Below, piece after piece: positions 1,228 to 29,684 of a stretch of DNA of 30,317 bases. Both the position numbers and the translations under genes were made by a program. The notes beneath the pieces are model-generated. The model worked only from the letters and a program-made list of their open reading frames with translations. It had not been told where the DNA came from and made no database searches. The stretch spans positions 67,322 to 97,638 of IMG/VR virus record IMGVR_UViG_3300042301_002383. One strand, 5' to 3'. Within the stretch, counting starts at the first letter, position 1, and each line of letters opens with the position of its first letter. This DNA is from a virus. Its lineage: Duplodnaviria; Heunggongvirae; Uroviricota; Caudoviricetes.

Positions 1228-1371
1228 TTAATATAAATACTTAACACAATAGTTAATTGCGTGTTGTTCTTCCATAAATGGATTACTTATAATTGTTTCA
1301 CCATCTTGTAAGTATTTTACGTACCAACATTGGTTTTCTAAATAAATTTCTATGTTTGTTACTTCTCCCAT
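1228..1371 (-). CDS. Small hypothetical protein (47 aa), below the ORF-track threshold
   Basis: Manual translation: MGEVTNIEIYLENQCWYVKYLQDGETIISNPFMEEQHAINYCVKYLY*. It fills the gap between 1215 and 1385 on the same strand as both neighbours. Confidence 0.55.
   Translation of the reverse strand: MGEVTNIEIYLENQCWYVKYLQDGETIISNPFMEEQHAINYCVKYLY
1233..1242 (-). promoter_or_regulatory. AAGTATTTAT motif (candidate phage late promoter)
   Basis: Lies 17 nt upstream of the ATG at 1215. An identical 10-mer sits upstream of the fibre gene and a 9-mer variant upstream of the ATP-grasp-Hint gene. Confidence 0.45.
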
Positions 1372-12788: not shown

Positions 12789-12798
12789 ATAAATACTT
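12789..12798 (-). promoter_or_regulatory. AAGTATTTAT motif upstream of the fibre gene
   Basis: Lies 23 nt upstream of the ATG at 12765. An ATATTTAT variant on the + strand (12827-12834) precedes the divergent gene at 12839. Confidence 0.45.
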
Positions 12799-16645: not shown

Positions 16646-17307
16646 TATCTTTTAGTTATTATAATAATTCCGTTAAGGAAATTTATCGATTCTATCTGTG
16701 TACCAATGTAATTGTATCCTTTAGCTTCAAATTGTTCAACTAACTTATCTTCTCTTCTGGCATTTGCATTATGAAAATTCTCCAATGTTTCACCAAAAAA
16801 ATTAACTTCATCTGTTATACCTTTAAAGTATTCCATCATAGTGCCTTCCAAGTATCTTCCGCCACCATAGTATGGTAAATAAGACGTACATACATCTTCT
16901 ACAACATAAACACCACCGGGTTTAATTGAATCCCATAAATGTTCAAATGAATATATTACATGTTCATTCATGTGCGAACCATCGTCTAGTATCATGTCAA
17001 ATGGTCCGTATTGTGTTTTAATTTTTGTTAAAAACTCTGCATCGAATTGAGAACCAATTTCAACTTTCATCCTATCTTCTTCATATTGTTTACAATCTGG
17101 GTTGATGTCAATACCAAGAATGTTTGACCTATAATAGAATTCTTTCCAAGTTCTTAAGGAATCTCCACCCAAGATACCAATTTCCATTATGTTTAAATTA
17201 TCATACCTATTGAATGGTAGATATTTCTCATACTTAACACAATAATTGTGTATTTCGGAAGACTTATCAGTTCCGTACTTTTTAGCTAAATCGTTTAATA
17301 TACTCAT
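16645..17307 (-). CDS. Class I SAM-dependent methyltransferase, sugar O-methyltransferase-like (MycE-like)
   Basis: KYGTDK...HNY...YE, MEIGILGG.S...W..F, GIDI, FDMILDDGSH, W..IKPGGVYVVED. Confidence 0.8.
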   Translation of the reverse strand: MSILNDLAKKYGTDKSSEIHNYCVKYEKYLPFNRYDNLNIMEIGILGGDSLRTWKEFYYRSNILGIDINPDCKQYEEDRMKVEIGSQFDAEFLTKIKTQYGPFDMILDDGSHMNEHVIYSFEHLWDSIKPGGVYVVEDVCTSYLPYYGGGRYLEGTMMEYFKGITDEVNFFGETLENFHNANARREDKLVEQFEAKGYNYIGTQIESINFLNGIIIITKR

Positions 17308-20024
17308 CTTGTAAAATATAACATTTGTAACGCATTATTTATACCCATAAACATAAGATATGAGTTAAATCCTAATTTCAACATTCTATCAATTAATTGT
17401 TGTCTCAATTCATCATCAAAATTAAAATGACTATGATGATATTCCATTGAGATGTTATTAACCTTCATTAAATTATCGTCACTAATTCCTTTTAAGGCGT
17501 GATGTTCAGCGCCTTCGATATCAATTTTAAGAAAATCAATATGGTCAACCAATCCAGTTTCAAACAAGTAATCTAACGTATACGTTCTTACTGGATAGTT
17601 TACTGTATTATTATGTGTACCAAATAAATTGGATCCACCTAAATGGGAACTCTCATATAATCTAAATTCTCCAATAGAATCCGCAGCACCCGCATTAAAT
17701 AAAATAGAACGAGGGTCAGCATTTAAGGATAATAATTTAAAATATCTTTTATCTGGTTCAAAAGATATAACTTTAGATGCACCTTGACTATACGCCCATC
17801 TATTGAATATACCGATGTTACCACCTAAATCAACAACAACATCACCTTCATTAATATTCTTTACTCTATCTTTATAATAATCAAGTAGATTAAAAATCTC
17901 ATGATAGATAGCCCTAAACCAACCAAATTTTTCCGCCACCTCTAATGTACCACCTTCATACTCCTTTATGTCCCCCAAGTTTTCAACATTGTATATTCCT
18001 GTATAAAAATATTCTGAGTTATAAAATGAATTGTCCTTTATAAATTTGATAAACTGAACCATTTTATCTGAGTTCTCGGAATTCTTATTCCCGTGGAAAT
18101 AAAGAATATCTTCTTTGTTCTTTGGTATGTATTGATAACCAAAAACTTTATCGAAGTTATATGGTCCTTTCTTATTCCAAAAAGTGTAGAAGTCTTCTAA
18201 TTGTTTTTGTGTTTGACCAGCATCACCATCATAAGATGATGTATCAAAATTAGATAATGGTAAATGTTTAGTGTAACCATGTTTCCATCTTAATGCGTTT
18301 TCAATACCCTCATCATTCCATATGAACAACCTATCGTAATCTTTTAAATCTGTTGTCTTATATGATTCAATTACTTGTTCAAACCACCCAACACAATTTC
18401 TATTATAAATGAACATACAAACATGCATGTATGGTGTTCTTTTTTGAATACCCCACTCTTTAGCTAACTCTTCATTAAATGATTGGTTCTTTGTTTGACC
18501 ATCTAATGTATAGTAACCATAAAATTCTTCTTGTCTATGAATGTCAGATAATGGATAGTTATCAATATCCTTAAAGTATTTTTCAATCGTATCGAAATTG
18601 TGATTAATCACCACATCACCATCAATCCAAACAAACTTATCATAGTCTTCATTAAACGCCTCAATACACGCATATTGTTTCCAATACCATCTATCATGTT
18701 CAGAATGTTTTGGTGGGTCAATTCTTCTTTTAATTACGTTCGGGTAATCAAATGGAACGTCACAATCAACACCATAAACAATTATTTTAGAATTTGAGAA
18801 TTCTAATACTGATTGTACTAGTTTCTCGATAACAGGCATATAACCGATATTACCCGTTGTTACAAATACAAATGGTTTCATTTTTTCTTCTAATAACATA
18901 GACGCATTTTTTGCAATAGTATCCCAATTAAAATCTTTATGTATTCTTTTTGCGTCTTCACGTGACGTAATCCACATCGCTGTTTTATAATCGTAAGCTT
19001 GACGCATTTTAAATTTTAAATCTTCCCAGTCCGGTTCACAATATTCTCCAGGGAAATCTTTATGTTCGTAATTTGCAGGAACTAACCCTTTAATTGATAC
19101 AGGTACACCTTTACCTTGGGTGAATTGTTGTTGTCCACCCCAATCTGCATATATCGATGGCGTTCCACATGCCATAGCTTCAATCAATGGTAAATTCCAA
19201 CCTTCACTTCTAGCACAAGAAACAAATACATCTGCCGTTTGCAAATACTTAACATATTCTTCTCTTGATGGGAAATTAACTATTTTAATATTCTTTGTGT
19301 TAATACCATAATGTTTGATTCTTTCTTCTGTTGTACTCAAACCATCTGATGAATATGGGTTTTCTACTGATGCAATTAACTCAACATCTGTTTCGTCTTT
19401 AAACTCTTCACCAAATGCTCGTAATATTTCTGTAGTCCCTTTTCTCCACTCCCATCTACCAAACAAAACAAACTGTGTCTTATCTTTTTTAGGATATTTT
19501 TCTAATGGTTTAAATGTTTCAACATCAACACCTTCAGGAACTACATATATCTTTTCTTTTGGATAACCTTGTTCAACTAAACAATCAAACTGCCATTGTG
19601 TTGGGACCCACACTTCATCAAAGTAAAATAATCTATTAAAGAAGTCATCTGGATAACGTGTCGATTCCCAAACATTGTATGCAATATTATAACCACTATA
19701 ATTGTCATAGAAATAGTAATGATTCATATCCATTAACACGATATTAATGTCCGGCGTAAAATCACCCTTATAACCATATATCGGTGAATCTCCGTGACTA
19801 CCGTCACTATTAATCAAGGTCTGTTGGATTAACATATCCTTCATTTCGTCGGTTATGTATGGTTCGTCATTATGTGGGGTATTATTCATACCTTTCCAAC
19901 CTTTCCCGATTGTTGCGTTCCTAACCTTTACAGTATGGTATTTGTTTAGGGCACAAAAAAAGGACCTAGCGTGATTAGCATATCCTGTGGTACCAATGAA
20001 TGGTGCGTGTGCAAGTATTTTCAT
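17304..20024 (-). CDS. Fusion: GT4 glycosyltransferase + putative GT-A-like domain + FkbM-family methyltransferase
   Basis: GT4 E-x7-E motif EGWNLPLIEAMACG; middle domain with WIDGD (DxD); C-terminal VVDLGGNIGIF, ISFEP, TLD, DFLKIDIEGAE. Confidence 0.85.
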   Translation of the reverse strand: MKILAHAPFIGTTGYANHARSFFCALNKYHTVKVRNATIGKGWKGMNNTPHNDEPYITDEMKDMLIQQTLINSDGSHGDSPIYGYKGDFTPDINIVLMDMNHYYFYDNYSGYNIAYNVWESTRYPDDFFNRLFYFDEVWVPTQWQFDCLVEQGYPKEKIYVVPEGVDVETFKPLEKYPKKDKTQFVLFGRWEWRKGTTEILRAFGEEFKDETDVELIASVENPYSSDGLSTTEERIKHYGINTKNIKIVNFPSREEYVKYLQTADVFVSCARSEGWNLPLIEAMACGTPSIYADWGGQQQFTQGKGVPVSIKGLVPANYEHKDFPGEYCEPDWEDLKFKMRQAYDYKTAMWITSREDAKRIHKDFNWDTIAKNASMLLEEKMKPFVFVTTGNIGYMPVIEKLVQSVLEFSNSKIIVYGVDCDVPFDYPNVIKRRIDPPKHSEHDRWYWKQYACIEAFNEDYDKFVWIDGDVVINHNFDTIEKYFKDIDNYPLSDIHRQEEFYGYYTLDGQTKNQSFNEELAKEWGIQKRTPYMHVCMFIYNRNCVGWFEQVIESYKTTDLKDYDRLFIWNDEGIENALRWKHGYTKHLPLSNFDTSSYDGDAGQTQKQLEDFYTFWNKKGPYNFDKVFGYQYIPKNKEDILYFHGNKNSENSDKMVQFIKFIKDNSFYNSEYFYTGIYNVENLGDIKEYEGGTLEVAEKFGWFRAIYHEIFNLLDYYKDRVKNINEGDVVVDLGGNIGIFNRWAYSQGASKVISFEPDKRYFKLLSLNADPRSILFNAGAADSIGEFRLYESSHLGGSNLFGTHNNTVNYPVRTYTLDYLFETGLVDHIDFLKIDIEGAEHHALKGISDDNLMKVNNISMEYHHSHFNFDDELRQQLIDRMLKLGFNSYLMFMGINNALQMLYFTR

Positions 20025-20045: not shown

Positions 20046-20060
20046 AACTTAAAAAGTCAA
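20032..20060 (-). promoter_or_regulatory. sigma70-like promoter TTGACT-N17-TATATT
   Basis: -35 at 20055-20060 and -10 at 20032-20037 with a 17-nt spacer. The ATG at 20024 follows the -10 by only 7 nt. Confidence 0.65.
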
Positions 20061-20863
20061 ATTAAATTTTGTTTAATTTTTGATAAATCATTCAAATAAC
20101 TTGAGAAGTTTTTAGTTATAAAATTGTGTAATTTATATGAATAGGTTTTATTATGGTTTGGTCCTGGATGTATGTCATCAACTCCATAATCCAAAAAAGG
20201 TCTTCCGTAATCACCATCGAATCTGTTAAATTCATTATAATCTTTTGGTATGTGGAAAAAACCATTCCATATCCAATTACATTTTTTAGATTCTAAAAAA
20301 TGCTTTATTAATAAATGATTTTTGTACCAATTTATAAAATCTTCATTATCATTTTGTAAATAAGTTAAATATTCTTGTGTTTTAACACCATCATCTGTTT
20401 CTTTCAAATATCCCCAAGATAATGTGGGCATAAAGGGTTCTATTCCCCCATCTTTAGTATATAATTCTCTTCTAAATGTATTTGTATACATTATTAATAC
20501 CAAATCTGGTTTAATTAAATCATAGTAACTCATTAAACATCTACATATAAAATCGTTACTTCTTCCTCCTGTTCCAAAGTTTAAATTTACCCCATTTTCA
20601 ATATGGTTACAAAATTGTGCCGGCCAAGTTTCATTATCATTGACACCGACTCCTTCCGTAATTGAACAACCTAATGACATAACTTTAAAACCTTCTTTTT
20701 TTATACTATCACCTCTAAATCCTAATTCATTATAGGTGTAGGTACATAGTCCTGTATTATCTCCACCGGAAGTTGTATATGTCTGATTTACTCTTTCTTT
20801 TAATGAATATTTGTAAGATGAGATTTCAAATCCTTTCGGGTTCCAATATTCTAATGGGTTCAT
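20057..20863 (-). CDS. SGNH/GDSL-like hydrolase or acyltransferase
   Basis: NELGFRGD, block I LGCSITEG, block II NFGTGGRSND, block V DDIHPG. Confidence 0.7.
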   Translation of the reverse strand: MNPLEYWNPKGFEISSYKYSLKERVNQTYTTSGGDNTGLCTYTYNELGFRGDSIKKEGFKVMSLGCSITEGVGVNDNETWPAQFCNHIENGVNLNFGTGGRSNDFICRCLMSYYDLIKPDLVLIMYTNTFRRELYTKDGGIEPFMPTLSWGYLKETDDGVKTQEYLTYLQNDNEDFINWYKNHLLIKHFLESKKCNWIWNGFFHIPKDYNEFNRFDGDYGRPFLDYGVDDIHPGPNHNKTYSYKLHNFITKNFSSYLNDLSKIKQNLI

Positions 20864-21360
20864 ATTAATTTATTTGTTTCTGTTTTTATATGTTCATTTT
20901 GTAAAAACCAAAGTAATGAGTATCGTTCACCTTCTAAAATTGGTGCTATTTCATGCTCAATTCCTACATCAAATATATAAGTGTTTCCAATAATTTTATT
21001 TAAAATTATTTCATTTGGATTATACAATGTAAAATCACCACCTTCAAAGTTATCATTTAATAAAACACCAACCGCATATAATCTGTTATCTCTAATATCA
21101 TTGTGTTTTCCAAACCAATCACCTTTCGTAAATTTATGCAAATGTATCGTTTTTTTTATTGTTCTAATTTCAATGTTTGTTTCCCTTTCCACAAAATCCT
21201 TCAACTTATCAAATAACCAATTGGTTTCTAATGAATAATCAATTGGTTGTGAATTATATTTTCTATCCCCCATTCTCCAATTTGTAATATGTTGATTGGA
21301 TTCTAATATAATGGACTCACACTCCTCTTTACTAAATAAGATTTTTTCTTTTAATATCAT
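20860..21360 (-). CDS. 2OG-Fe(II) oxygenase (prolyl hydroxylase-like)
   Basis: KHND...LLNDNFEGGDF...IEHEI.PI..GERYSL. Confidence 0.85.
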   Translation of the reverse strand: MILKEKILFSKEECESIILESNQHITNWRMGDRKYNSQPIDYSLETNWLFDKLKDFVERETNIEIRTIKKTIHLHKFTKGDWFGKHNDIRDNRLYAVGVLLNDNFEGGDFTLYNPNEIILNKIIGNTYIFDVGIEHEIAPILEGERYSLLWFLQNEHIKTETNKLI

Positions 21361-21370
21361 TTTTCTTAAT

Positions 21371-21913
21371 TTATAAAAATTTTCTTTTTGTTTTCCTCCT
21401 ATTTCTTAACCTATTTGTATTATCTAATAGGTGTTCATACTTTGTACTTGTTAAACCAATATAATCTTTTATTCTTTGTATATCCTCTTTGGTGTCGTAT
21501 ATCCCTTCATATGTAACTTTTAACTGAATTTCTTTTATTGTATTAAAATAGTCAATTGTATTATTTACCCATTCCTCAAAATATTTTATGTCTATTTCGT
21601 TTTCTTTTATCCATTCATCACTTACTTCATACCCATTTCTCCATTCCTTTCGTTGTACTGCTTTGGTATGTGATATTGAACACTCTCTCGCATCCTCACG
21701 CGTTAATCCAATTATCTTATCCCAATTTGTTAAATCAATATCCATTCTATTTTCAATTTCACTAATATTATATTTTACCACAATATTGTTTCCTTCAATG
21801 GATTGATTTGTGTATATTGGTTCATGTATCATTTTATGTTCTAGCTCCATAGACAACCATTCATTCAATTGATATCCACCACTTCTTGATAATGCAATAA
21901 TTAAAATTCTCAT
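21371..21913 (-). CDS. Sulfotransferase-like protein
   Basis: N-terminal IIALSRSGG...L......HEP (5'-PSB-like loop), IIGLTRED...S, VTYE.IY. Confidence 0.55.
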   Translation of the reverse strand: MRILIIALSRSGGYQLNEWLSMELEHKMIHEPIYTNQSIEGNNIVVKYNISEIENRMDIDLTNWDKIIGLTREDARECSISHTKAVQRKEWRNGYEVSDEWIKENEIDIKYFEEWVNNTIDYFNTIKEIQLKVTYEGIYDTKEDIQRIKDYIGLTSTKYEHLLDNTNRLRNRRKTKRKFL

Positions 21914-22950
21914 ATTAACGTTTTATTTGTAGTATCAATAAACTCATATAGATTATGAAATAGATTTGTGTTTTTCCACACTTTATTAAACTCTCTTTTA
22001 AATAATTCATGTTCTGGATGATTTGTATTCCAAACTTGTTTTAATTTAAACTCGCCCTCTGAAAATGTGCCCCAATTAGTTATCTTACCGAAAAACACAT
22101 TTACTTTCTTACCAAAAATAGAATACATTAAATTATAAAATGTTTCCATTTCGGTATAATTTGTATCTTGTACCACAAATGAAGTTTTAACACTTATTGG
22201 TAATGTATTAATGAATTTTAAATTGTTTATTAGATTTTCCCAATTACCACCTATTCTTGTTTTATTTTCATAGGTGTCTTTTGTACCTGCATCTATACTA
22301 ATTTCACAACTATGAACATATTTATGTATATTTGGCATACTATCCCACATTTCTTTATTCCACATTGATGCGTTTGTATGAAGATGTATTGATTGCAGTT
22401 TTGGATATTTTTTAGGATTAAAATTTCTTAGATAATTTCTAAACCCAACCGAAACAAACGGGTCTCCTGATCCTGTTATATATAGTGATTTCACATTTGC
22501 AGAATAATGAGTATCAATTTCTTCAATTGTTTTCTCTATCCGTTTAATTCCATTACTGTTTTCAACAATTAAATCTACCCTACAAGATGGACATTTATAA
22601 TTACAAGTTCTATCAAAGTTCATCATTAACATATCAGGAGTGTTATTTTCTATAATAGTATTATTAATATTTGAATTTGATTTTAAAGTAATTGGACCAT
22701 TTGCAACCCCATAATTTACTAATTTACTTAAAAATGGACAAAGTTCTTTATTACAATACTTAAATGAACCATCTAACATACTTTCTCTAATCTCTTGAAC
22801 AGGTTCACTATTCCATATTTCATTTAATTTATATTCATCTCTTTTAAATGAAACATTTAACCAAGATGGACAACACAAAAAATATTGATTATTGTGTATT
22901 TCCAATGAGTTGAATGGTACACCACATATGTAATTTTTTAAATCTACCAT
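21910..22950 (-). CDS. Radical SAM protein with N-terminal SPASM/twitch-like Cys domain
   Basis: CNYKCPSC (CxxxCxxC), ITGSGDP, LHTN, ISIDA. N-terminal CGVPF...LCC...IWNS...IR..M..G....C....CP. Confidence 0.85.
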   Translation of the reverse strand: MVDLKNYICGVPFNSLEIHNNQYFLCCPSWLNVSFKRDEYKLNEIWNSEPVQEIRESMLDGSFKYCNKELCPFLSKLVNYGVANGPITLKSNSNINNTIIENNTPDMLMMNFDRTCNYKCPSCRVDLIVENSNGIKRIEKTIEEIDTHYSANVKSLYITGSGDPFVSVGFRNYLRNFNPKKYPKLQSIHLHTNASMWNKEMWDSMPNIHKYVHSCEISIDAGTKDTYENKTRIGGNWENLINNLKFINTLPISVKTSFVVQDTNYTEMETFYNLMYSIFGKKVNVFFGKITNWGTFSEGEFKLKQVWNTNHPEHELFKREFNKVWKNTNLFHNLYEFIDTTNKTLI

Positions 22951-22959
22951 ATTTTATTA

Positions 22960-23430
22960 TTAATGAAACCAAAAATTTAATGCGTATCGTGTTCCTTCTG
23001 TAACTGGTTTTACTTCGTGATATTGATGACCGCCATCAAATACAACACCATCTCCCTTTTTTAAATTTACAACTTTATTATTTATATATGTATCTCCACC
23101 TATAAACCCATTGGATAACAAAATTATTGATGTTTTATTTTTTGCACCATCTACATGTCTTCGTAACCACCTACCATCCTTATATTCGGTCATTTGTAAC
23201 CACATCGTTTTGTAATTAGGGAAATTATTTTTACTCAACTCATTTATAACTGTATTATAAATTTCTTCATTCCACTTTTCTCTTTCTAGTAGTTGAATAC
23301 CTTGTTGACCCCATATCAACCAAACAAACCAGTTTGTTTTATGGGATTCACTTAAAACACATTCATTCTTAATTTTATCTATTAAATTATCACAAAATTC
23401 GTTGGGTAAAAGATTTTTATATATTTCCAT
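22960..23430 (-). CDS. 2OG-Fe(II) oxygenase
   Basis: EYKDG..LRRHVD...LS.GF.GG.T...KKGDGVVF....YHEVKPV.EGTRYAL. Confidence 0.85.
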   Translation of the reverse strand: MEIYKNLLPNEFCDNLIDKIKNECVLSESHKTNWFVWLIWGQQGIQLLEREKWNEEIYNTVINELSKNNFPNYKTMWLQMTEYKDGRWLRRHVDGAKNKTSIILLSNGFIGGDTYINNKVVNLKKGDGVVFDGGHQYHEVKPVTEGTRYALNFWFH

Positions 23431-23994
23431 TTAAAATAAAGTTTTTTCTTTTTTTACTTTATCCTTTATTTGAAATCCTAATGTTAAAGTTATTCTTGGT
23501 TTTTCTCCTATTACCGGCATACTGCCATGTTCGACCCTACCAGCAACACACCTCCAAACCATTCTTTCTTTTAACTCATTAATCTTACCATTATATATTG
23601 AGTGTCCGCCTTCATGTGGATATGATAGTATTATGTTATATCTAACATGTGTATATCCATCTAAATTTGAATCACTATGTAAATGAATTGAACCCCCTTC
23701 TTTATTAATACCAATTGCGTCTTCAAACATTGGGTCTAATATCCAATCATTAATTTTTTCTACTTCAATTACCCTATCCTTTATTTTTTTTACCAAATCT
23801 AATGGTGAATTTAATATTTTTGTTAATACACCGATTTGTCTAGAACCATATGGCGCATTTATGGTATGACTATTAGTTGTGTTTATTTGAAATAGATGTG
23901 AATTAGAATTTGTCCAAAATAAAAGATTTTCTTGTTCTTCATTTGTTATGAATTCTTCATAACCATATGTGTCATTCAAAATTATTTTTTTCAT
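23431..23994 (-). CDS. 2OG-Fe(II) oxygenase
   Basis: GGSIHLHSD...RYNIILS.P.EGG...EHGSMPV.G..PRITL. Confidence 0.8.
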   Translation of the reverse strand: MKKIILNDTYGYEEFITNEEQENLLFWTNSNSHLFQINTTNSHTINAPYGSRQIGVLTKILNSPLDLVKKIKDRVIEVEKINDWILDPMFEDAIGINKEGGSIHLHSDSNLDGYTHVRYNIILSYPHEGGHSIYNGKINELKERMVWRCVAGRVEHGSMPVIGEKPRITLTLGFQIKDKVKKEKTLF

Positions 23995-24722
23995 AATAAT
24001 GTTTTATTTATTTTTCTTTGTTCAAACTCTTTATAAAGATTATCATATTTTTGTTTAAAATTATCATTGATTTCTATTACACACTCAAATTGTTTACTTG
24101 AGTTTATTTTTTCCATTTTAAAATCCTTATTTAATTTTTTTGATACCCAATTTTCTAATTCCACCAAATTATCAATATCAAACCAAATAATATTTGGATT
24201 ACTATTTGTGAGTTCAACTACTGGTGTAAATAATATATCTAACATATTTTTAGTATAGGACTCTTTTTTTGAAATTTTTAACTTAGTTAAAAAATTATCA
24301 ATAACTTTAGACCTATTTTCCAAATTATAAATGTCATTTGATGTGATATTATCAAACATATCATTAGTTGTTAACTTTGAAAATTTATCAGCAATATCAA
24401 ATTTATTTTTTCTGTATAATTCATCTATAATGTGTTTCCATAAAGATAAAAATCTATCATAATTGTTTCTTCTTATTGAAATAATTTGATTGTTTATACC
24501 AAATTTTTCTTGTAATATATATAATGGTTCATGTGCGTGTACTAAACTATCCGCCAATTCTTCATTATTCATTTTTTCCCATTCATTTATTTTAATCAAC
24601 TGATTATCAAGGTTTGAATTGAAATGTTCTACTGGTATCTTGTTTTTTAGACACGTAATCATAAATGATGTTGAAGCACATCTTGGTAAACTTATAAAAA
24701 TAAATTTTTTATCTATTAACAT
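23991..24722 (-). CDS. Sulfotransferase family 2-like protein
   Basis: FIFISLPRCASTS (5'-PSB) and IRRNNYDRFLSLW (3'-PB). Confidence 0.75.
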   Translation of the reverse strand: MLIDKKFIFISLPRCASTSFMITCLKNKIPVEHFNSNLDNQLIKINEWEKMNNEELADSLVHAHEPLYILQEKFGINNQIISIRRNNYDRFLSLWKHIIDELYRKNKFDIADKFSKLTTNDMFDNITSNDIYNLENRSKVIDNFLTKLKISKKESYTKNMLDILFTPVVELTNSNPNIIWFDIDNLVELENWVSKKLNKDFKMEKINSSKQFECVIEINDNFKQKYDNLYKEFEQRKINKTLL

Positions 24723-25402
24723 TATATTAAATGATTTCCCTTTTCAAATCTCTTTTCAAAATTTTCCCAAATGAATGATTTTAATTCGTCATTTACAATT
24801 ATCTTATTTGGTCGTTTGGATGTTTTATTTGTGTGATTTATAATTAATGTTTCTCCAAATCTATCTTCTATAAAATCTGTAAATTTATCAATTTCACTAA
24901 TGTCAAATTCGTAGGTACATTTTTTATTAGATTTGAAAAATCTTTGGGAAAGTAAAGTGTCAACCGCACCTCTAATCGGTAATTCACATTCAAAATTTTC
25001 TTTTACTAGTTTAAACCAGCACTTCCTAAATCCATCGTGATCGTTACTCAACAAATGTAATTTATTTAAAAAATCGGTATTAAATGTTTTATAGATATAT
25101 TCATTATCAACATCCTCCCATTTACGAACAGCAGTGTATTCGCTTTCAAATTCTATATTATCCCAAACAAAATTTAGGGCACTTAACCATCTAGATAACC
25201 AATCACGTGTTATACAAACAGTTTCTTTATCCCCCCATCGTTCTAAACATTGATTCACCGGTACGTGAAAATGCCGTGTTTTGTCATTTGGTACAAATAT
25301 TTCTAAATTTAATTTTGAGTTTCTTAATGATTGTTCAATGGAATAACTGGCACACTTTGGGATAGAAACCCAAATGAGTTCATTATTAATTAAATGAGAC
25401 AT
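24722..25402 (-). CDS. Sulfotransferase family 2-like protein
   Basis: WVSIPKCASYSI, ITRDWLSRWLSA, SQ..F, and a C-terminal N...K-type end. Confidence 0.75.
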   Translation of the reverse strand: MSHLINNELIWVSIPKCASYSIEQSLRNSKLNLEIFVPNDKTRHFHVPVNQCLERWGDKETVCITRDWLSRWLSALNFVWDNIEFESEYTAVRKWEDVDNEYIYKTFNTDFLNKLHLLSNDHDGFRKCWFKLVKENFECELPIRGAVDTLLSQRFFKSNKKCTYEFDISEIDKFTDFIEDRFGETLIINHTNKTSKRPNKIIVNDELKSFIWENFEKRFEKGNHLI

Positions 25403-25404
25403 TT

Positions 25405-25707
25405 TTATATAATTGTTTTAGTTGATTTAAACCCTTTTAAATATTCATCTTCAACTTGTTTCCACTTTCCTAACGGACACGATCCCTTTTTATCTAAATA
25501 TGTTTTGGGTGTGTATACTTTACCTTTTAATGGGCAACCACATTCTCCACATTTTAATGACCATTCTTTATTTTTATTTTTAAAAAATTCTTGTTTAGAT
25601 GGGCATTCTAAACAAATATCAAACCTATCATCTGCCAATTTTTTTAATTCATTAGAGTGTATAAGTGTATTGTACCACGCGATTGAAATTTCTTTGAGAT
25701 CTATCAT
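25405..25707 (-). CDS. Small six-Cys metal-binding protein (DUF6171-like)
   Basis: R..ICLECP...CGECGCPL..K.......CPLGKW. Confidence 0.7.
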   Translation of the reverse strand: MIDLKEISIAWYNTLIHSNELKKLADDRFDICLECPSKQEFFKNKNKEWSLKCGECGCPLKGKVYTPKTYLDKKGSCPLGKWKQVEDEYLKGFKSTKTII

Positions 25708-25708
25708 A

Positions 25709-26281
25709 TTATAAGAGTGTTTTTTTATAACTACTTTTTTCTTTTATTGCAACCCAATTAACTAATGTATATCTATTACCATTTTTAACTACCGTTACTC
25801 TATGATCGATATCAGATAAAAAAACGATAGTGTTACCTATTCCCTTTTCTACTTTCATTATTGAACCATCGGATAATTTTAATTCTAAATCACCTTCTTC
25901 ATATTCATCATTTAGTTGTATAACTAAAGAACAATATCTTTCGTGTTGTGTAACTTCTTTTCCTGTAATATCTTTATGCCAAACAAAAAAATCACCATCT
26001 TTATATTCTGTGAATTGGAATTGACTATTTTTGTAATCTAAATCGAATCCTTTTATGGTGATATTTTCATCTAATAATTTAGATATTTTTTCTAATATAA
26101 ATGGAAATTTTTGATAATATGGATAAAATACCACATTTGATTTTCTGGTACCATAAGTTGGGGAATCATAACCAATGGTTTTTGCAGGATTTAATATTAA
26201 ATTTTCTAATGTGAAATTCAGAACTAAATCACATTCTTCTTTTGTTAATAAATTTGATACGGATTTATATGTAAACGACAT
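25709..26281 (-). CDS. 2OG-Fe(II) oxygenase (PKHD/prolyl 4-hydroxylase-like)
   Basis: QFTEY..GDFFVWHKD...SLVIQLN.EYEEGDL...G.TIVF.S.IDHRV..V..GNRYTLV.W. Confidence 0.9.
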   Translation of the reverse strand: MSFTYKSVSNLLTKEECDLVLNFTLENLILNPAKTIGYDSPTYGTRKSNVVFYPYYQKFPFILEKISKLLDENITIKGFDLDYKNSQFQFTEYKDGDFFVWHKDITGKEVTQHERYCSLVIQLNDEYEEGDLELKLSDGSIMKVEKGIGNTIVFLSDIDHRVTVVKNGNRYTLVNWVAIKEKSSYKKTLL

Positions 26282-26287
26282 AACTTT

Positions 26288-26818
26288 TTATATTAATGAT
26301 TTTGTTTTTTTTGTTATATAGTTAACCGGCATCCAATGTAGAAAAAATTGTAATACTCTTTGGGTTTCGTCGCATTCTAAAGGATTTCTCCAATGAACGT
26401 TTTTATCAGCATCAAATAATAATATTCCGTCGCCTATATTTGTGTGATGTGAGTATTCTTCACCACCTATTTTAGCAAATAATGGCCATTCTTTGTTTAT
26501 TGTTGACTCTAAACATATTGAAATTGTTACACTTATATCTGTTCTATCTATATGTTTTGTTAAAAATGCACCATTGAAATACTCCCTAACATATGTGTTC
26601 ACATTATCTAAATGTTCAATTCCATTATTGAATTCTAACACTTTTGGTTTTAATTTTTCCATATATTTATCAAAATTATATGAAGGTCTAAATCCAAAAG
26701 AAGCATTCGTTTCTACCATTTTATCACTAGAAGAGTTATTTACCTTTTCAATATCAAATTGTTTAGATAAAAATACACATTCCTCCTTTGAAAGAATATT
26801 TGGAATGAAGTAAATCAT
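26288..26818 (-). CDS. 2OG-Fe(II) oxygenase-like protein
   Basis: YVREY..G..L.KHIDR...SVTISI......WPL...GDGIL.....HWR.PL. Confidence 0.75.
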   Translation of the reverse strand: MIYFIPNILSKEECVFLSKQFDIEKVNNSSSDKMVETNASFGFRPSYNFDKYMEKLKPKVLEFNNGIEHLDNVNTYVREYFNGAFLTKHIDRTDISVTISICLESTINKEWPLFAKIGGEEYSHHTNIGDGILLFDADKNVHWRNPLECDETQRVLQFFLHWMPVNYITKKTKSLI

Positions 26819-26836
26819 AACCTATTATTTTTAGAA

Positions 26837-26926
26837 TTAACTATTTGCAGTTACAATTAAATTGCCAATGGTAGTTAAAGTTGTGTTCAGTACGTTGATT
26901 TCTGTGTTTGTTATTATAGTTGTCAT
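26837..26926 (-). CDS. 29-aa Thr/Asn/Ile-rich peptide, below the ORF-track threshold
   Basis: Manual translation: MTTIITNTEINVLNTTLTTIGNLIVTANS*. It fills the gap between the ATP-grasp-Hint gene and the first oxygenase and has an A-rich 5' context. Confidence 0.55.
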   Translation of the reverse strand: MTTIITNTEINVLNTTLTTIGNLIVTANS

Positions 26927-26951
26927 ATTATTTTAATTTTTATTATTTTTA

Positions 26952-28451
26952 TTAACTCCAACATATTCCTTGATAAGCATTACAAGTCGGGTTACCGTAT
27001 GGACCGGAACAATATGGTTCGTTTTTTGGACAAGTCGGACAAGCGCCCCCCCAACAACATCCCACTGGACAACTAGGTCCATTATGTTCAATCGAAACAA
27101 ACGATTCGTTATTTGTTGATGTGGTCTTAGTTAAAAATAAGTGTGTTCTTTCTACTGAAATAAACCAACCGGTAAATACTTTTTTAATTTGTGTAACAGA
27201 TACTACTGTTTTTCTAACAAAATCCATTAACCCATCCGTTGTGTTTAACAATAAAACCGCATCTCCAGATACCACATCAAATAAATTTTCAAATTGAACT
27301 TCATTATTTCTTTCAATCAAATACGAAGAAACTCCCGTATCCTCCCAAGTACTATTATCGTCAAAAGTTAATTGATAAAAATATGATAATTTATTAACTC
27401 TTTTTAATGCATTAATTTTGTTTGTTGAATATGTTGTACCACTTAGTAATGTTTCATACGTTATTCCAAAATTTGCGGTATAGGATGCATTATCTGTGCC
27501 ATTTGGATTTGGTATATCAATTGTTTTAATTACATCATCAACATTTAAATCTAATGCGGTTTTAAATGTGCCGTCAGCCATTTCTACTAAATCAGTATCT
27601 AACAGTTTTGGTAACCAGTTACTATTTACAGAAGTTGTATAACTATCTCTATATTCTGAATTTATCTCATAAGTTTCTGAGTTATATTCTACATCAGTAA
27701 AAAATATATTTTCATTTAATTTAGTATATTGTCCTATATGAATTGATTGTAACGTCGGTGGGTATAATATGTTTAAACTTCTAACTACCTTTATGTGACC
27801 TTCGTAACTATTAGTGGTGTTACAGTAGTTTTCCATTAAAAAATATTCAGATGTAACATTTTCTAAAACCACATCTAATTCTTCTTGTGTTGTTACTTTA
27901 TAAAATTTAGGATAAACCTCTTTATCATAGCCAGGATACCTTGATTTTAGAATAAAATTAGGGTGTACACCATTATCTGTTATTGTTGTTATAGTATTAA
28001 TTAAAGTGTTGTTTTCATCTATGTAAGCAAATTGTGAACCGAACGATTGGGATTGGATAAGTTTCATAAATTCAACCTTATCTCTACAATAGGTATCATC
28101 TACCAACGCAGTTGTATCATATGCACTTCTGATAATTAATGTTTCATCATTATCCTCTATAACTGGGATAGTAATCGACAAACCACCAATTGCGTGGTAT
28201 TCATATGTAACGGAACTTCCTGTGTAGTGTGTTTCTAATGTTTTATGAAAATATTGAATATCCCCAACGTAATGTATATTTTGGAAATTATTATCAGTAA
28301 CAAATTGGTATAAATTTGTTAAATCCAAACAATCCACATCATCTTCAACTTTGGATGCGTTATCCCAACCAACTGCGGTGTTTATTTCGATGGGTTTTAA
28401 ATTACCATCCTGATCGTACATAAAGTCCGAACCTATTAATACTGTTCTCAT
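26952..28451 (-). CDS. Fusion: circularly permuted ATP-grasp-like domain + Hint domain + Cys-rich C-terminal peptide
   Basis: N-terminal GSDFMYDQDGNLKPIEINT (D...ExN motif placed first) with later FILKS..G......YFLMENY. Residues 282-457 read KLLDTDLVEMADG.FK...DL.VDD.I...ISVE.THLFL...IEHN. They are followed by 42 aa with 8 Cys. Confidence 0.7.
   Translation of the reverse strand: MRTVLIGSDFMYDQDGNLKPIEINTAVGWDNASKVEDDVDCLDLTNLYQFVTDNNFQNIHYVGDIQYFHKTLETHYTGSSVTYEYHAIGGLSITIPVIEDNDETLIIRSAYDTTALVDDTYCRDKVEFMKLIQSQSFGSQFAYIDENNTLINTITTITDNGVHPNFILKSRYPGYDKEVYPKFYKVTTQEELDVVLENVTSEYFLMENYCNTTNSYEGHIKVVRSLNILYPPTLQSIHIGQYTKLNENIFFTDVEYNSETYEINSEYRDSYTTSVNSNWLPKLLDTDLVEMADGTFKTALDLNVDDVIKTIDIPNPNGTDNASYTANFGITYETLLSGTTYSTNKINALKRVNKLSYFYQLTFDDNSTWEDTGVSSYLIERNNEVQFENLFDVVSGDAVLLLNTTDGLMDFVRKTVVSVTQIKKVFTGWFISVERTHLFLTKTTSTNNESFVSIEHNGPSCPVGCCWGGACPTCPKNEPYCSGPYGNPTCNAYQGICWS
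27081..27608 (-). other. Hint (intein-like) domain predicted competent only for C-terminal cleavage
   Basis: Block A-like LLDTDLVEMADG has Lys where the Cys1/Ser1 nucleophile aligns. Terminal His-Asn is intact (27081-27086), the +1 residue is Gly, the length is 176 aa and there is no endonuclease insert. Confidence 0.65.
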
Positions 28452-28469
28452 ATTTTCCTTATTTTATAT

Positions 28470-28478
28470 ATAAATACC
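28470..28478 (-). promoter_or_regulatory. GGTATTTAT motif upstream of the ATP-grasp-Hint gene
   Basis: Lies 18 nt upstream of the ATG at 28451 and has the same core as the motifs at 1233 and 12789. Confidence 0.45.
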
Positions 28479-28693
28479 TATTTTTTATCTTTTAATCCAA
28501 ATTTTATCCATCTATACCATATCCTTTCGTGAATATAATATTGTATTGGTTTATATATTAATTCAGCCACGCCAAATGCTGTACCTACCTTTATTGACCC
28601 ACTAATCCACCACATTAATAAGAACCCTATTAAGGTGCTTACGATTCGATATGAAACGGTTTTGGCTATGTGTCTCTTACGTTCTACCATCAT
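28478..28693 (-). CDS. DUF2061-type small membrane protein
   Basis: HIAKTVSYRIVST...hydrophobic...YYIHERIW. This family is often found with APS kinase genes. Confidence 0.75.
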   Translation of the reverse strand: MMVERKRHIAKTVSYRIVSTLIGFLLMWWISGSIKVGTAFGVAELIYKPIQYYIHERIWYRWIKFGLKDKK

Positions 28694-29073
28694 TATCCTT
28701 TTGTTTGATCATATTTAATTTCACCATCAGGTGTCATGTGACCAGTTCTAATGGCTGTTCCGCTTATTACCGCCACATCCGCTGGTGGCTCATGATAAAT
28801 TACATCATAACCAACACCTCTACCGTAATTAACCGATTCAATATCCGGAATAATTGATAATAAAATCTTATCAAAATTCTCATTAAAAAATGGTTCTTGA
28901 ATTAACATTTGAAAAACCTCTTGGGCTGTCTTTGGATTGTTCTCATCAACTTCAACATCTCTAATAGCCACCCATACGTTCTTATCTTGGTCCATTTGTT
29001 GGCGAATCAACCATTCGTGACCTTTGTGCCAATTTTGCCACCTACCGATGTACATTGCATATTTCTTACTCAT
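28693..29073 (-). CDS. HUP-fold (cytidyltransferase-like) nucleotidyltransferase
   Basis: YIGRWQNWHKGH (HxGH) and a C-terminal ISGTAIR. Confidence 0.8.
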   Translation of the reverse strand: MSKKYAMYIGRWQNWHKGHEWLIRQQMDQDKNVWVAIRDVEVDENNPKTAQEVFQMLIQEPFFNENFDKILLSIIPDIESVNYGRGVGYDVIYHEPPADVAVISGTAIRTGHMTPDGEIKYDQTKG

Positions 29074-29504
29074 AATGATAATTTTTTTAACAGTTCATAA
29101 TATGAATCCGTTTCGTTTTTTATTGTTGTGTCTATATCTATAAAATTTTCTAATGGGGGTTCATATTCCTCAACGTGGAATTCATTCCTACCCCTATCCT
29201 CTGTAGTGTGAACATAAATCTCAACAACTGATGTGCTGAACTTAAACGATTCTCTTTGGTCTCTATATGGTGAAACTAAGGATACAATAACATTGTGACC
29301 CTTACTATGCATAAATTGTGCAATATATTGTGCTCTTTGAATGTTTAATCTTCTTCCTGTGATGGAATAGTCTTTATTCTTAAAGATGTCTCTTAGGTCA
29401 TCCCCATCGATGTGAATAACCTCATCTTTAGGGAAATATTCCACCAAGTATTTCGCTAGGGTTGTTTTACCTGCACCGGGCTGTCCTGTTAACCAATATA
29501 TCAT
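29070..29504 (-). CDS. cysC: Adenylyl-sulfate (APS) kinase
   Basis: YWLTGQPGAGKTT (P-loop), IDGDDLR, YS..GR..NI, VSLVSPY...R, YEPP. Confidence 0.85.
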   Translation of the reverse strand: MIYWLTGQPGAGKTTLAKYLVEYFPKDEVIHIDGDDLRDIFKNKDYSITGRRLNIQRAQYIAQFMHSKGHNVIVSLVSPYRDQRESFKFSTSVVEIYVHTTEDRGRNEFHVEEYEPPLENFIDIDTTIKNETDSYYELLKKLSL

Positions 29505-29567: not shown

Positions 29568-29684
29568 TTAATGATTGTAAATAAACGGGTCTTTTTTACG
29601 TAATTCTTCTAATTTTTTTTTAAAACGTTTTTTACGTTTATAATCTTCTATTTTTTCTAAAATCCATTTATATATCTTCTTCAT
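29568..29684 (-). CDS. 38-aa basic peptide, below the ORF-track threshold
   Basis: Manual translation: MKKIYKWILEKIEDYKRKKRFKKKLEELRKKDPFIYNH*. It starts 1 nt after the carbamoyltransferase stop. Confidence 0.6.
   Translation of the reverse strand: MKKIYKWILEKIEDYKRKKRFKKKLEELRKKDPFIYNH

Follow-up and report, generated by a model that had tools for sequence, protein, structure and literature searches.

A ligase-Hint gene module with tagged modifying enzymes in uncultured giant lake-water phages, a candidate pathway for a modified cysteine-rich peptide

The locus and its gene order

Analysing the terminal 30.3 kb of an IMG/VR virus record of 97.6 kb (IMGVR_UViG_3300042301_002383; this whole stretch of 30,317 nucleotides is hereafter called the window), we characterized a run of minus-strand genes (29504–20057) headed by the gene of a 499-aa protein, which combines a predicted ATP-grasp-like ligase domain, a predicted Hint domain and a short cysteine-rich tail. 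Behind this ligase-Hint gene stand putative modifying enzymes, most of which end in the same short C-terminal tag. The run is a real, widespread and co-inherited module. Its best reading, which we hold tentatively and with somewhat less than even confidence, is a pathway of the RiPP kind (peptides made on the ribosome and modified after translation), making a modified, disulfide-rich peptide with Hint-mediated release.

The record was estimated by CheckV to be 29% complete, which places the genome at about 330 kb; its G+C content is 33%, near-identical DNA is present in many lake-water metagenomes, and the source is an uncultured giant lake-water phage. Among cultured-phage records, neither a megablast search with the cluster nor a tblastn search with the 499-aa protein gave a match. 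Public metagenomes hold more than 770 close relatives of this protein, all of them labelled only "hypothetical protein", and an exhaustive profile search, distant members included, returned 366 relatives. The ligase-Hint family is thus abundant and concerns a common group of freshwater giant phages. Comparisons across loci refer to a synteny set of 76 viral loci holding relatives of the 499-aa gene (41–99% identity); individual loci are designated L006, L007, L086 and so on, while G000 denotes the 97.6-kb genome of the window and G002 and G003 related phage contigs.

All cluster genes lie on the minus strand with a spacing of −4 to +10 nt, apart from three wider gaps of 26 nt before the ligase-Hint gene, 133 nt after it (containing a 29-aa open reading frame, ORF) and 32 nt before a glycosyltransferase gene. 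In transcription order, the region comprises a carbamoyltransferase gene truncated at the edge of the window, a conserved 38-aa micro-ORF, genes for an adenosine 5'-phosphosulfate (APS) kinase, an HxGH nucleotidyltransferase and a DUF2061 protein, the 26-nt gap with the promoter-like sequence aGGTATTTATATA, the ligase-Hint gene, the 29-aa micro-gene, eleven further genes, the 32-nt gap and a GT4/FkbM gene. Re-examination of coordinates and spacing gave the gene order, strand and tight coupling that a first-pass annotation of the same DNA had described. The genes that it listed are all present, but the list lacked the 29-aa micro-gene and the ATP-grasp domain of the 499-aa protein. As for its enzyme inventory, the three sulfotransferase-like proteins, the radical S-adenosylmethionine (SAM) protein, the SGNH-like and Cys-rich proteins and the supply of 3'-phosphoadenosine 5'-phosphosulfate (PAPS) were all recovered, whereas the five announced 2-oxoglutarate (2OG) oxygenases are better described as four solid members and one probable one (ox187).

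The head protein and its two immediate partners are encoded as follows, the structural assignments being predictions:

27612–28451, minus strand: residues 1–280 of the 499-aa protein, ATP-grasp-like ligase domain of the circularly permuted glutathione-synthetase type (AlphaFold2 model and Foldseek)
27081–27611, minus strand: residues 281–457, Hint domain with Lys282 replacing Cys1 and an invariant His456-Asn457 (Foldseek and invariant columns)
26955–27080, minus strand: residues 458–499, 42-aa hypervariable Cys-rich tail with 8 Cys, 7 Pro, 3 Tyr, 2 Trp and one Lys in C-x-K
26837–26926, minus strand: 29-aa micro-gene (MTTIITNTEINVLNTTLTTIGNLIVTANS), directly after the ligase-Hint gene in about 50 distinct loci
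25405–25707, minus strand: cys100, zinc-ribbon-like protein of 100 aa, tagged (…TKTII), found in 74 of the 76 loci, with an invariant Cys pattern and tag and weak zinc-ribbon matches

The ligase-Hint protein and its hypervariable tail

Pfam and PHROG scans of the 499-aa protein gave no family match. In its AlphaFold2 model (predicted local distance difference test, pLDDT, of 81, falling to about 30 in the tail), residues 1–280 match human and yeast glutathione synthetase by Foldseek (E 3e-5 to 1e-4). Conservation within the protein is highest in this ATP-grasp-like domain, which has many invariant Asp, Glu, Asn, Lys and Arg residues and no Pfam match of its own. Residues 281–457 gave 78 PDB matches at E ≤ 0.001, the best being inteins, hedgehog (1at0) and BIL2 (6tmm), with E of about 1e-6 and TM-scores by target of 0.6–0.72, and are predicted from the model to have a Hint fold. 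For the 499-aa protein, a profile search against PDB sequences returned nothing beyond an AXH match at chance level.

The His456-Asn457 pair is invariant in 45 aligned relatives (42–91% identity), is kept in distant relatives too, and sits exactly where the conserved body (residues 1–457) meets the hypervariable tail. Position 1 of the Hint domain aligns to an invariant Pro281-Lys282 and is therefore without a Cys, Ser or Thr nucleophile, and the +1 residue, variable among 161 distinct tails (Y, F, G, L, A, S, V and others), is never Cys. Splicing and N-terminal cleavage are excluded by these two features. C-terminal cleavage by Asn cyclisation belongs to established intein chemistry, and such cleavage after Asn457 would be the sole reaction chemically open to this Hint domain. 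The presence of a fused ATP-grasp-like domain means that the peptide may be ligated to something, rather than simply released.

Translation confirmed to the residue the composition earlier given for the tail after Asn457 (7 Pro, 3 Tyr, 8 Cys, 2 Trp). In relatives, the tails are 35–55 residues long and hypervariable, with C-termini that are not conserved. Among the 161 distinct tails, an even number of cysteines (6, 8 or 10) was found in 160, the single C-x-K lysine is kept in 155, and proline accounts for 12.7% of the residues. The even cysteine number argues for disulfide pairing in the tail, and hence for a function outside the cell. Compared with L006, the body of the window's protein is 99.8% identical, with nonsynonymous (pN) and synonymous (pS) divergences of 0.0009 and 0.014, against 0.106 and 0.205 in the tail. 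These tail changes are packed in one inter-Cys loop resembling the L007 version, which points to an exchange of inter-Cys loops by recombination.

The 29-aa micro-protein has a conserved C-terminus (…ANS) and differs from that of L007 by mostly synonymous changes. A complex predicted between the ligase-Hint, micro- and zinc-ribbon proteins scored 0.47 against 0.00 for the best control, was graded by the tool as "weak support" and gave no interface. The mark for this score is reached by 58 of 80 solved complexes and by 2 of 110 mismatched pairs, and only 7 of those 80, together with both passing mismatches, scored 0.60 or less. At least 23% of the contacts agree between prediction runs, with a partner pLDDT of at least 58.

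The putative modifying enzymes

Besides cys100, ten genes of putative modifying enzymes follow the micro-gene; PSB designates the 5'-phosphosulfate-binding loop, P4H prolyl 4-hydroxylase and HMM hidden Markov model:

26288–26818, minus strand: ox176, 2OG oxygenase-like, tagged (…TKSLI); joins the 2OG family by iterated HMM, PHROG 2954 at 1e-17, without Pfam match
25709–26281, minus strand: ox190, P4H-like 2OG-Fe(II) oxygenase, tagged (…KKTLL); Pfam PF13640 at 5e-12
24722–25402, minus strand: st226, protein of sulfotransferase fold, tagged (…GNHLI); alignable with heparan sulfate 2-O-sulfotransferase at the PSB loop PKCASYS, at the catalytic His and at RDWxxRWLS
23991–24722, minus strand: st243, st226 paralogue, tagged (…NKTLL); same HMM family, PHROG 3347 Gal-3-O-sulfotransferase at 1e-4
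23431–23994, minus strand: ox187, probable 2OG oxygenase, tagged (…EKTLF); hhalign E 0.014 to the 2OG family, with HxD, distal His, Arg and tag aligned
22960–23430, minus strand: ox156, P4H-like 2OG oxygenase, untagged (ends …FWFH); Pfam PF13640 at 8e-10
21910–22950, minus strand: radical SAM protein with an N-terminal Cys-rich twitch-like region, tagged (…NKTLI); PF04055 at 1.7e-7, 32.0 bits against a cut-off of 29.5
21371–21913, minus strand: st180, second-type sulfotransferase-like protein (PSB loop SRSGG) with a tag-like end (…KRKFL); family profile against NodH E 0.067, with both PAPS-binding motifs
20860–21360, minus strand: ox166, 2OG oxygenase, tagged (…TNKLI); PF13640 at 1e-5, slightly short of the cut-off; belongs to the core of the 2OG HMM family
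20057–20863, minus strand: SGNH/GDSL hydrolase-like protein with a tag-like end (…KQNLI); family profile against the GDSL protein 4rsh at 1e-4 (blocks I–II)

In the 2OG family (30 members), His102, Asp104 and His160 do not vary, and Arg170 is nearly invariant. The family profile matches a PKHD hydroxylase (2e-14) and bacterial, viral and algal prolyl 4-hydroxylases (1e-11 to 4e-7), making the cluster enzymes protein-hydroxylase-like, and its clade is that of the protein prolyl hydroxylases, in line with the earlier proposal that the cluster holds 2OG enzymes suited to the modification of proline. The ox156 subfamily is without the tag in all loci, and no homologue of ox187 was found in the 76 loci.

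The family of st226 and st243 carries PKxASxS, a conserved His and RDxxxRxxS, which correspond to the PSB loop, the catalytic His and the 3'-phosphate-binding (3'-PB) motif. In the AlphaFold2 model of st226 (pLDDT 88.6), the top 50 Foldseek matches were all sulfotransferases, with a best E of only 6.6e-3, and a faint Pfam Sulfotransfer_2 match was detected in a st243-type homologue of L086. Model and motifs together point to a PAPS-dependent sulfotransferase fold for both proteins. The radical SAM protein bears CNYKCPSC at residues 116–123 (CxxxCxxC motif) and matches the NCBIfam N-terminal twitch radical SAM profile at 9e-17, below cut-off. Ser67, Asn95, Gly100 and His232 are invariant in the SGNH-like family, whose Pfam match is likewise below cut-off.

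A C-terminal tag common to most of the enzymes

The tag has the consensus K-[TS]-L-[IL], and nine of the eleven genes following the micro-gene end in K/N-[TSKNH]-[LIF]-[ILF]. Across the loci, 248 of the 590 ORFs that lie downstream of the Hint gene terminate in it; for the remaining ORFs, the figure is 51 of 604. It is carried by the zinc-ribbon protein and by most 2OG, sulfotransferase and radical SAM members, while none of the 105 APS-kinase, nucleotidyltransferase and DUF2061 proteins examined has it, nor do the glycosyltransferases and methyltransferases of the operon. Within the genome of the window it is restricted to the cluster, other tightly packed operons there being untagged. The tag is disordered in the sulfotransferase model, and it persists after a variable linker as well as on the last tagged gene before the 32-nt gap.

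The tag's residues stay the same while their codons change synonymously, serine codons of the AGT and TCN types among them, and its distance from the next ATG is anywhere between −4 and +32 nt. The tag is therefore a feature of the protein; an origin at the DNA level was ruled out on the same grounds. The presence of the tag on enzymes that would modify macromolecules, and its absence from those supplying cofactors, form the pattern expected of a docking handle for a shared substrate or scaffold.

Conservation and variation across related phages

Across the 76 viral loci, the synteny starts with the head gene, the micro-gene and the zinc-ribbon gene, and continues with a variable enzyme set of 2OG oxygenases (about three per locus), sulfotransferase, radical SAM and SGNH-like proteins; in many cases the same GT4/FkbM gene closes the series. 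The position of the PAPS genes is upstream of the head gene or, where they are displaced, downstream. The suspected co-occurrence of the Hint-peptide gene with tagged enzymes is thus borne out across related contigs. In a search anchored on the sulfotransferase instead, the Hint gene was recovered within 6.2 kb in 54 of 65 loci, which speaks against enzymes occurring independently of the Hint gene, except for seven loci considered below. G002, a 211-kb contig, holds two paralogous ligase-Hint modules (L039 and L066), about 38 kb apart, whose tails and enzyme sets differ.

Across the wider family, the xHN junction is kept and the cargo behind it varies, consisting of a Cys-rich peptide alone, a Cys-rich segment followed by a second Hint domain or by an SD..K.NI motif, or 700–1240 residues with BACON domains. 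The second Hint, with a Cys1 directly after the Cys-rich segment, occurs in P0185, P0201, P0227 and P0232 (L086:9001-10968). This double-Hint form sits in a like operon, with PAPS genes, micro-gene and tagged sulfotransferase and 2OG genes, and a peptide held between a C-cleaving and an N-cleaving Hint could yield a peptide thioester. In P0211, P0235, P0192, P0197 and P0199, the Cys-rich segment is followed by the SD..K.NI motif, which resembles (by the motif alone) a Peptidase_S74 fibre-tip chaperone. BACON cargo was found in P0187, P0190 and P0198 (L090, L156) and a 997-aa cargo without Pfam family in P0160 (L157), these large cargoes ranging from 500 to 1240 aa. The genes of all four, P0160 included, are set between glycosyltransferase genes and the tail sheath gene, and they keep the micro-gene and a tagged zinc-ribbon gene. 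That the ends of the cargo are chemically activated is hinted at by three features: the ligase fused to the head, the lysine conserved in the tail and, in some relatives, the second Hint.

Tagged sulfotransferase homologues also occur between giant ORFs, with no ligase-Hint gene within 10 kb: at L150:6852-16838 between ORFs of 1048 and 1940 aa, and at L127:9995-16606 between ORFs of 820 and 814 aa, both records being only 6–18% complete.

Promoter-like motif and possible transcripts

The gap ahead of the head gene contains the following element:

28470–28477, minus strand: promoter-like motif GTATTTAT, lying within the wider sequence aGGTATTTATATA and 19 nt ahead of the 499-aa gene

Three copies of GTATTTAT are present in the window (28470–28477, 12789–12796 and 1233–1240, minus strand) and four further ones elsewhere in G000, in the context a[ag]GTATTTAT[ac]t. 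The first-pass annotation had noted the same motif before the run and before the fibre gene; these copies were confirmed, although the motif shows no excess by count in the window. All seven copies of the 97.6-kb genome are intergenic and lie 13–52 nt upstream of a co-oriented ATG, those of the fibre and 499-aa genes included, and because of this placement we consider the motif a real signal. It is a candidate phage promoter class common to the fibre gene and the 499-aa gene. Pfam assignments of the other genes behind GTATTTAT were uninformative as to a late-promoter class.

The sigma70-like promoter formerly placed before the glycosyltransferase gene exists as a sequence (TTGACT-17-TATATT), but 66 such sites were found against 74 expected from shuffled sequence; being no commoner than that, the site is not evidence of a promoter. 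No minus-strand terminator was found inside the run, terminator and sigma70-like predictions both being at chance level. Short contigs matching the 499-aa gene and some other parts of the cluster came from four lake and freshwater metatranscriptome runs; DNA carry-over is possible for them, and stretches left uncovered carry no information. One of them, X15, equals 27655–28087 with 0 differences, and among such contigs none bridges two genes.

Peptide pathway, virion decoration or conjugation

The RiPP-like interpretation already offered by the first-pass annotation draws on the conserved Hint-headed unit, the Hint fold with its His-Asn pair, the P4H clade of the oxygenases and the tag, but tail composition does not track enzyme content in independent pairs of loci. 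What the data show are the predicted folds, the motifs, the synteny, the tag with its distribution and the hypervariable tail; we infer the cleavage, the function of tag and ligase, the choice of modified residues, the timing of expression and what the peptide is used for. Transcription would start at the phage-specific motif aGGTATTTATATA, before the precursor made of ATP-grasp domain, Hint domain and 42-aa tail, while the APS kinase module would feed PAPS to the sulfotransferases. By means of the tag, P4H-like oxygenases, sulfotransferases, radical SAM and SGNH proteins may gather on the precursor itself or on a complex that it would form with the micro- and zinc-ribbon proteins, and there they would modify Pro, Tyr/Ser/Thr and other tail residues. 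Lacking an N-terminal nucleophile, the Hint domain would cut only after Asn457, by Asn cyclisation, and free the tail, whose even-numbered cysteines would then pair as disulfides outside the cell.

Several observations weigh against this peptide pathway. The raw correlation between tail proline and number of 2OG genes (rho 0.51) vanishes in phylogenetically independent pairs, and the corresponding pairs for tyrosine with sulfotransferase and for cysteine with radical SAM gave no signal, all three tests being underpowered with few informative pairs. The nearest sulfotransferase folds (heparan sulfate 2-O and 6-O, NodH) act on carbohydrates, not on tyrosine, and the operon lies in a glycan/fibre region whose downstream glycosyltransferase block is syntenic with it. 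A leader, or a recognition element read by an RRE (RiPP recognition element), is common in prokaryotic RiPP clusters without being universal; general Pfam scans gave no RRE-type (PqqD), exporter or immunity family, and recognition domains were absent from PHROG and NCBIfam scans as well. A model of free release also leaves the fusion of ligase and precursor unexplained. Seven loci in which the upstream sequence is long enough have a tagged sulfotransferase with no Hint gene within 5–10 kb, and a search for the Hint gene elsewhere on these contigs gave no match; as the records are only 3–18% complete, its absence there shows nothing. Finally, the BACON forms keep the micro-gene and the tagged zinc-ribbon gene, between glycosyltransferase genes and a tail sheath gene, without the enzyme cassette. 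The core module therefore unites the ligase-Hint head with the micro- and zinc-ribbon proteins, the tagged enzymes being an accessory set that accompanies the Cys-rich type of cargo, and with cargoes of 700–1240 aa in distant relatives a small-peptide product is a poor fit as the general role of the head module.

Part of these observations would be accounted for by a decoration of the virion or its glycans, which we consider unlikely but deserving serious attention. In that case, the tagged enzymes and the neighbouring glycosyl- and methyltransferases would have as their targets structural proteins, such as the Ser/Thr-rich fibre and lectin-like proteins, or the glycans that these carry. The docking site of the tag would be an assembly intermediate instead of the peptide precursor, and the ligase-Hint protein would be a separate neighbour or itself a decoration factor. 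GT4/FkbM, methyltransferase, GT9, Laminin_G and fibre genes flank the cluster, a sugar-modifying block continues upstream, and the GT906 block is syntenic with the cluster. The affinity of the sulfotransferases for carbohydrate sulfotransferases, the GTATTTAT motif common to the fibre and 499-aa genes, the BACON-cargo relatives adjoining a tail sheath gene and the L150 sulfotransferase, set between two giant ORFs with no Hint gene nearby, agree with it too. Against it, the glycosyltransferases and methyltransferases of the operon are untagged, and the enzyme cassette follows the Hint, micro- and zinc-ribbon genes in nearly all loci.

The fibre itself bears on both sides. This 2585-aa collagen-like protein of the window (5008–12765, minus strand) has 1176 residues in G-X-Y repeats, with Ser/Thr at X, Ser/Ala at Y and zero Pro, and 1077 Ser and Thr overall. 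Its hydroxyl-rich composition favours decoration, but without proline in its repeats it is a poor target for five prolyl-hydroxylase-like enzymes, and it is, from its sequence, likely an O-glycosylation substrate of the adjacent GT4/GT9 enzymes rather than a hydroxyproline collagen. The presence of collagen genes does not discriminate between the readings, as all three large relatives searched have collagen-like genes. In G003, 2OG genes situated 20 kb away from the Hint gene adjoin a 1042-aa collagen gene in which Pro takes 41% of the X positions; these 2OG genes are untagged, unlike the 2OG genes of the G002 Hint cluster, which again fits poorly with tagged oxygenases serving the virion. This single comparison suggests two oxygenase populations, one tagged and Hint-linked, the other untagged and collagen-linked.

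A conjugation of the tail, less probable again than decoration of the virion, would make use of the fused ligase. Freed at its N-terminus by the Hint domain, the tail would be joined by the ATP-grasp ligase, through the C-x-K lysine or the new amino terminus, to a carboxylate. A virion protein could serve as acceptor, as could the C-terminal end of the micro-protein, that of a tagged protein or, in a head-to-tail cyclisation, that of the tail itself. In place of a free linear peptide, this would give a covalently attached or cyclised hypervariable knot such as an adhesin tip, an outcome that we consider equally doubtful. Enzymes of the glutathione-synthetase family activate the C-terminal carboxylate of a peptide, and the ATP-grasp domain, of this type, is the most conserved part of the protein. 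The nearly constant tail lysine, the conserved free C-termini of the tag and of the micro-protein (…ANS), the second Hint of some relatives, which would give a C-terminal thioester, the Peptidase_S74-like chaperone motif of others, typical of fibre tips, and the BACON cargo beside tail genes all go in the same direction. On the other side, acceptor and chemistry are purely putative, conservation is lacking at the C-termini of the tails, no interface came out of the weak complex prediction, and double-Hint relatives keep the ATP-grasp domain, so that ligase and second Hint are not simple replacements of each other. An extended form of the peptide pathway borrows from this scheme: with no leader peptide for each enzyme to read, the enzymes would dock via their common C-terminal K-T-L-I address on the ligase-Hint complex with its micro- and zinc-ribbon proteins, the cystine-knot peptide, by then heavily hydroxylated and sulfated, would be freed by Asn cyclisation, and the ligase would cyclise it or attach it covalently to a target such as a virion protein, yielding a hypervariable, strain-specific product for host recognition or for conflict between phages or between phage and host. 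We regard this full sequence of events as rather improbable, a shade below virion decoration and barely above conjugation in its plain form.

That the tag is instead a degradation or turnover signal (ClpX-type, degron-like) or a by-product of an A/T-rich translation-initiation region, the enzymes being unrelated auxiliary genes, is very improbable: basic-hydrophobic C-termini do serve as protease recognition signals, and the tag does occupy the last 4–8 codons, in A-rich sequence just before the next start codon, but its synonymous codons and variable distance to the next ATG, its absence from other packed operons of the genome, its persistence behind a variable linker and before the 32-nt gap, and the recurrence of the same families with the Hint gene across the 76 loci all speak otherwise.

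Comparison with described systems

A literature search on Hint/ATP-grasp phage proteins, phage-encoded RiPPs, Hint domains with cysteine-rich peptides and YgiC/YjfC found no description of this layout, and the closest described systems each share one feature only. To our knowledge, no described system has a Hint-domain peptide release fused to a ligase, or a common C-terminal tag on unrelated tailoring enzymes. If the peptide pathway holds, the locus would represent a virus-encoded route to a peptide natural product, with ligase-fused Hint release and a shared enzyme tag. It would open to experiment the question of how, in the absence of a leader peptide, enzymes reach their substrate, would point to hundreds of natural disulfide frameworks, each with modifying enzymes to match, and may account for part of the many unexplained 2OG oxygenase genes in aquatic phage genomes. 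Even with the virion as target, the tag would mark a new way of organizing a decoration pathway.

In pretoxin-HINT polymorphic toxins, a Hint domain directly precedes a highly variable C-terminal cargo, with an inferred release by self-cleavage (Zhang et al. 2012, PMC3482391). The Hint domain of the 499-aa protein also precedes a cargo swapped between close relatives, but Pfam scans gave here no secretion or trafficking domain, filamentous repeats, toxin or immunity family, and PF07591 did not match. The gene is moreover viral, with an ATP-grasp head, a 35–55-aa Cys-rich cargo in place of a toxin domain, and tagged modifying enzymes downstream.

Borosins (OphMA) are RiPP precursors with enzyme domain and core peptide in one chain. 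The 499-aa chain likewise unites an enzyme domain with a presumed substrate peptide, and its neighbours encode radical SAM and 2OG enzymes typical of RiPP pathways. It differs by a putative release through a built-in Hint domain instead of a separate protease, by an ATP-grasp ligase as the fused enzyme, by the lack of leader peptide or RRE, and by the common tag of its enzymes, the modification of the tail being putative.

With A-type bacterial intein-like (BIL) domains and Tetrahymena BUBL BIL2 (6tmm/6y75), the 499-aa protein shares the predicted Hint fold (Foldseek E 3e-6) and a terminal His-Asn able to cleave without splicing; unlike in these, its invariant Lys at position 1 precludes an N-terminal thioester, and its +1 residue is variable and never Cys. 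Eukaryotic glutathione synthetases (8fbz, 1m0t, 5oet), members of a family that joins an amine to a Cys-containing peptide at its C-terminal carboxylate, match the fold of residues 1–280 at E 3e-5 to 1e-4, but with an identity of about 11–13% and no Pfam match, and the domain is here fused to a Hint.

Collagen prolyl 4-hydroxylases of PBCV-1 (5c5t) and Bacillus anthracis (3itq/5hv0) and mimivirus L230 (6ax6) match the cluster 2OG family at 1e-11 to 2e-3, with the HxD...H triad and the near-invariant Arg170, and collagen-like genes are present in these phages too. The cluster enzymes differ in being short (156–190 aa), tagged and placed behind a Hint gene, and the collagen-like fibre of the window has repeats without Pro. 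In G003:C1:40951-53966 (L083), the untagged 2OG block and the Pro-rich collagen form a candidate collagen prolyl-hydroxylation unit.

Flanking genes

On both sides of the head gene and its enzymes lie the following untagged or small genes:

29568–29684, minus strand: conserved 38-aa micro-ORF (…KKLEELRKKDPFIYNH; …KKRFKKKLEELRKKDPFIYNH) between the carbamoyltransferase and APS kinase genes, with relatives in 30 loci, called as a gene in L086
29070–29504, minus strand: APS kinase, CysC-like, 144 aa, PAPS supply, untagged; Pfam PF01583 at 8e-17, NCBIfam adenylyl-sulfate kinase at 3e-18, below the curated cut-off
28693–29073, minus strand: HxGH nucleotidyltransferase, 126 aa, untagged; NCBIfam NMN adenylyltransferase-like at 1e-7, below cut-off, matching the C-terminal half of PHROG 10255 "kinase"
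28478–28693, minus strand: DUF2061 small membrane protein, untagged; Pfam PF09834 at 5e-15
17304–20024, minus strand: fusion of GT4 glycosyltransferase and FkbM methyltransferase (Pfam), untagged, ending …YFTR, adjoining the SGNH gene in many loci

The HxGH nucleotidyltransferase accompanies the APS kinase and the DUF2061 protein in 39 loci, and we infer that it is an ATP-sulfurylase-like partner of the APS kinase.

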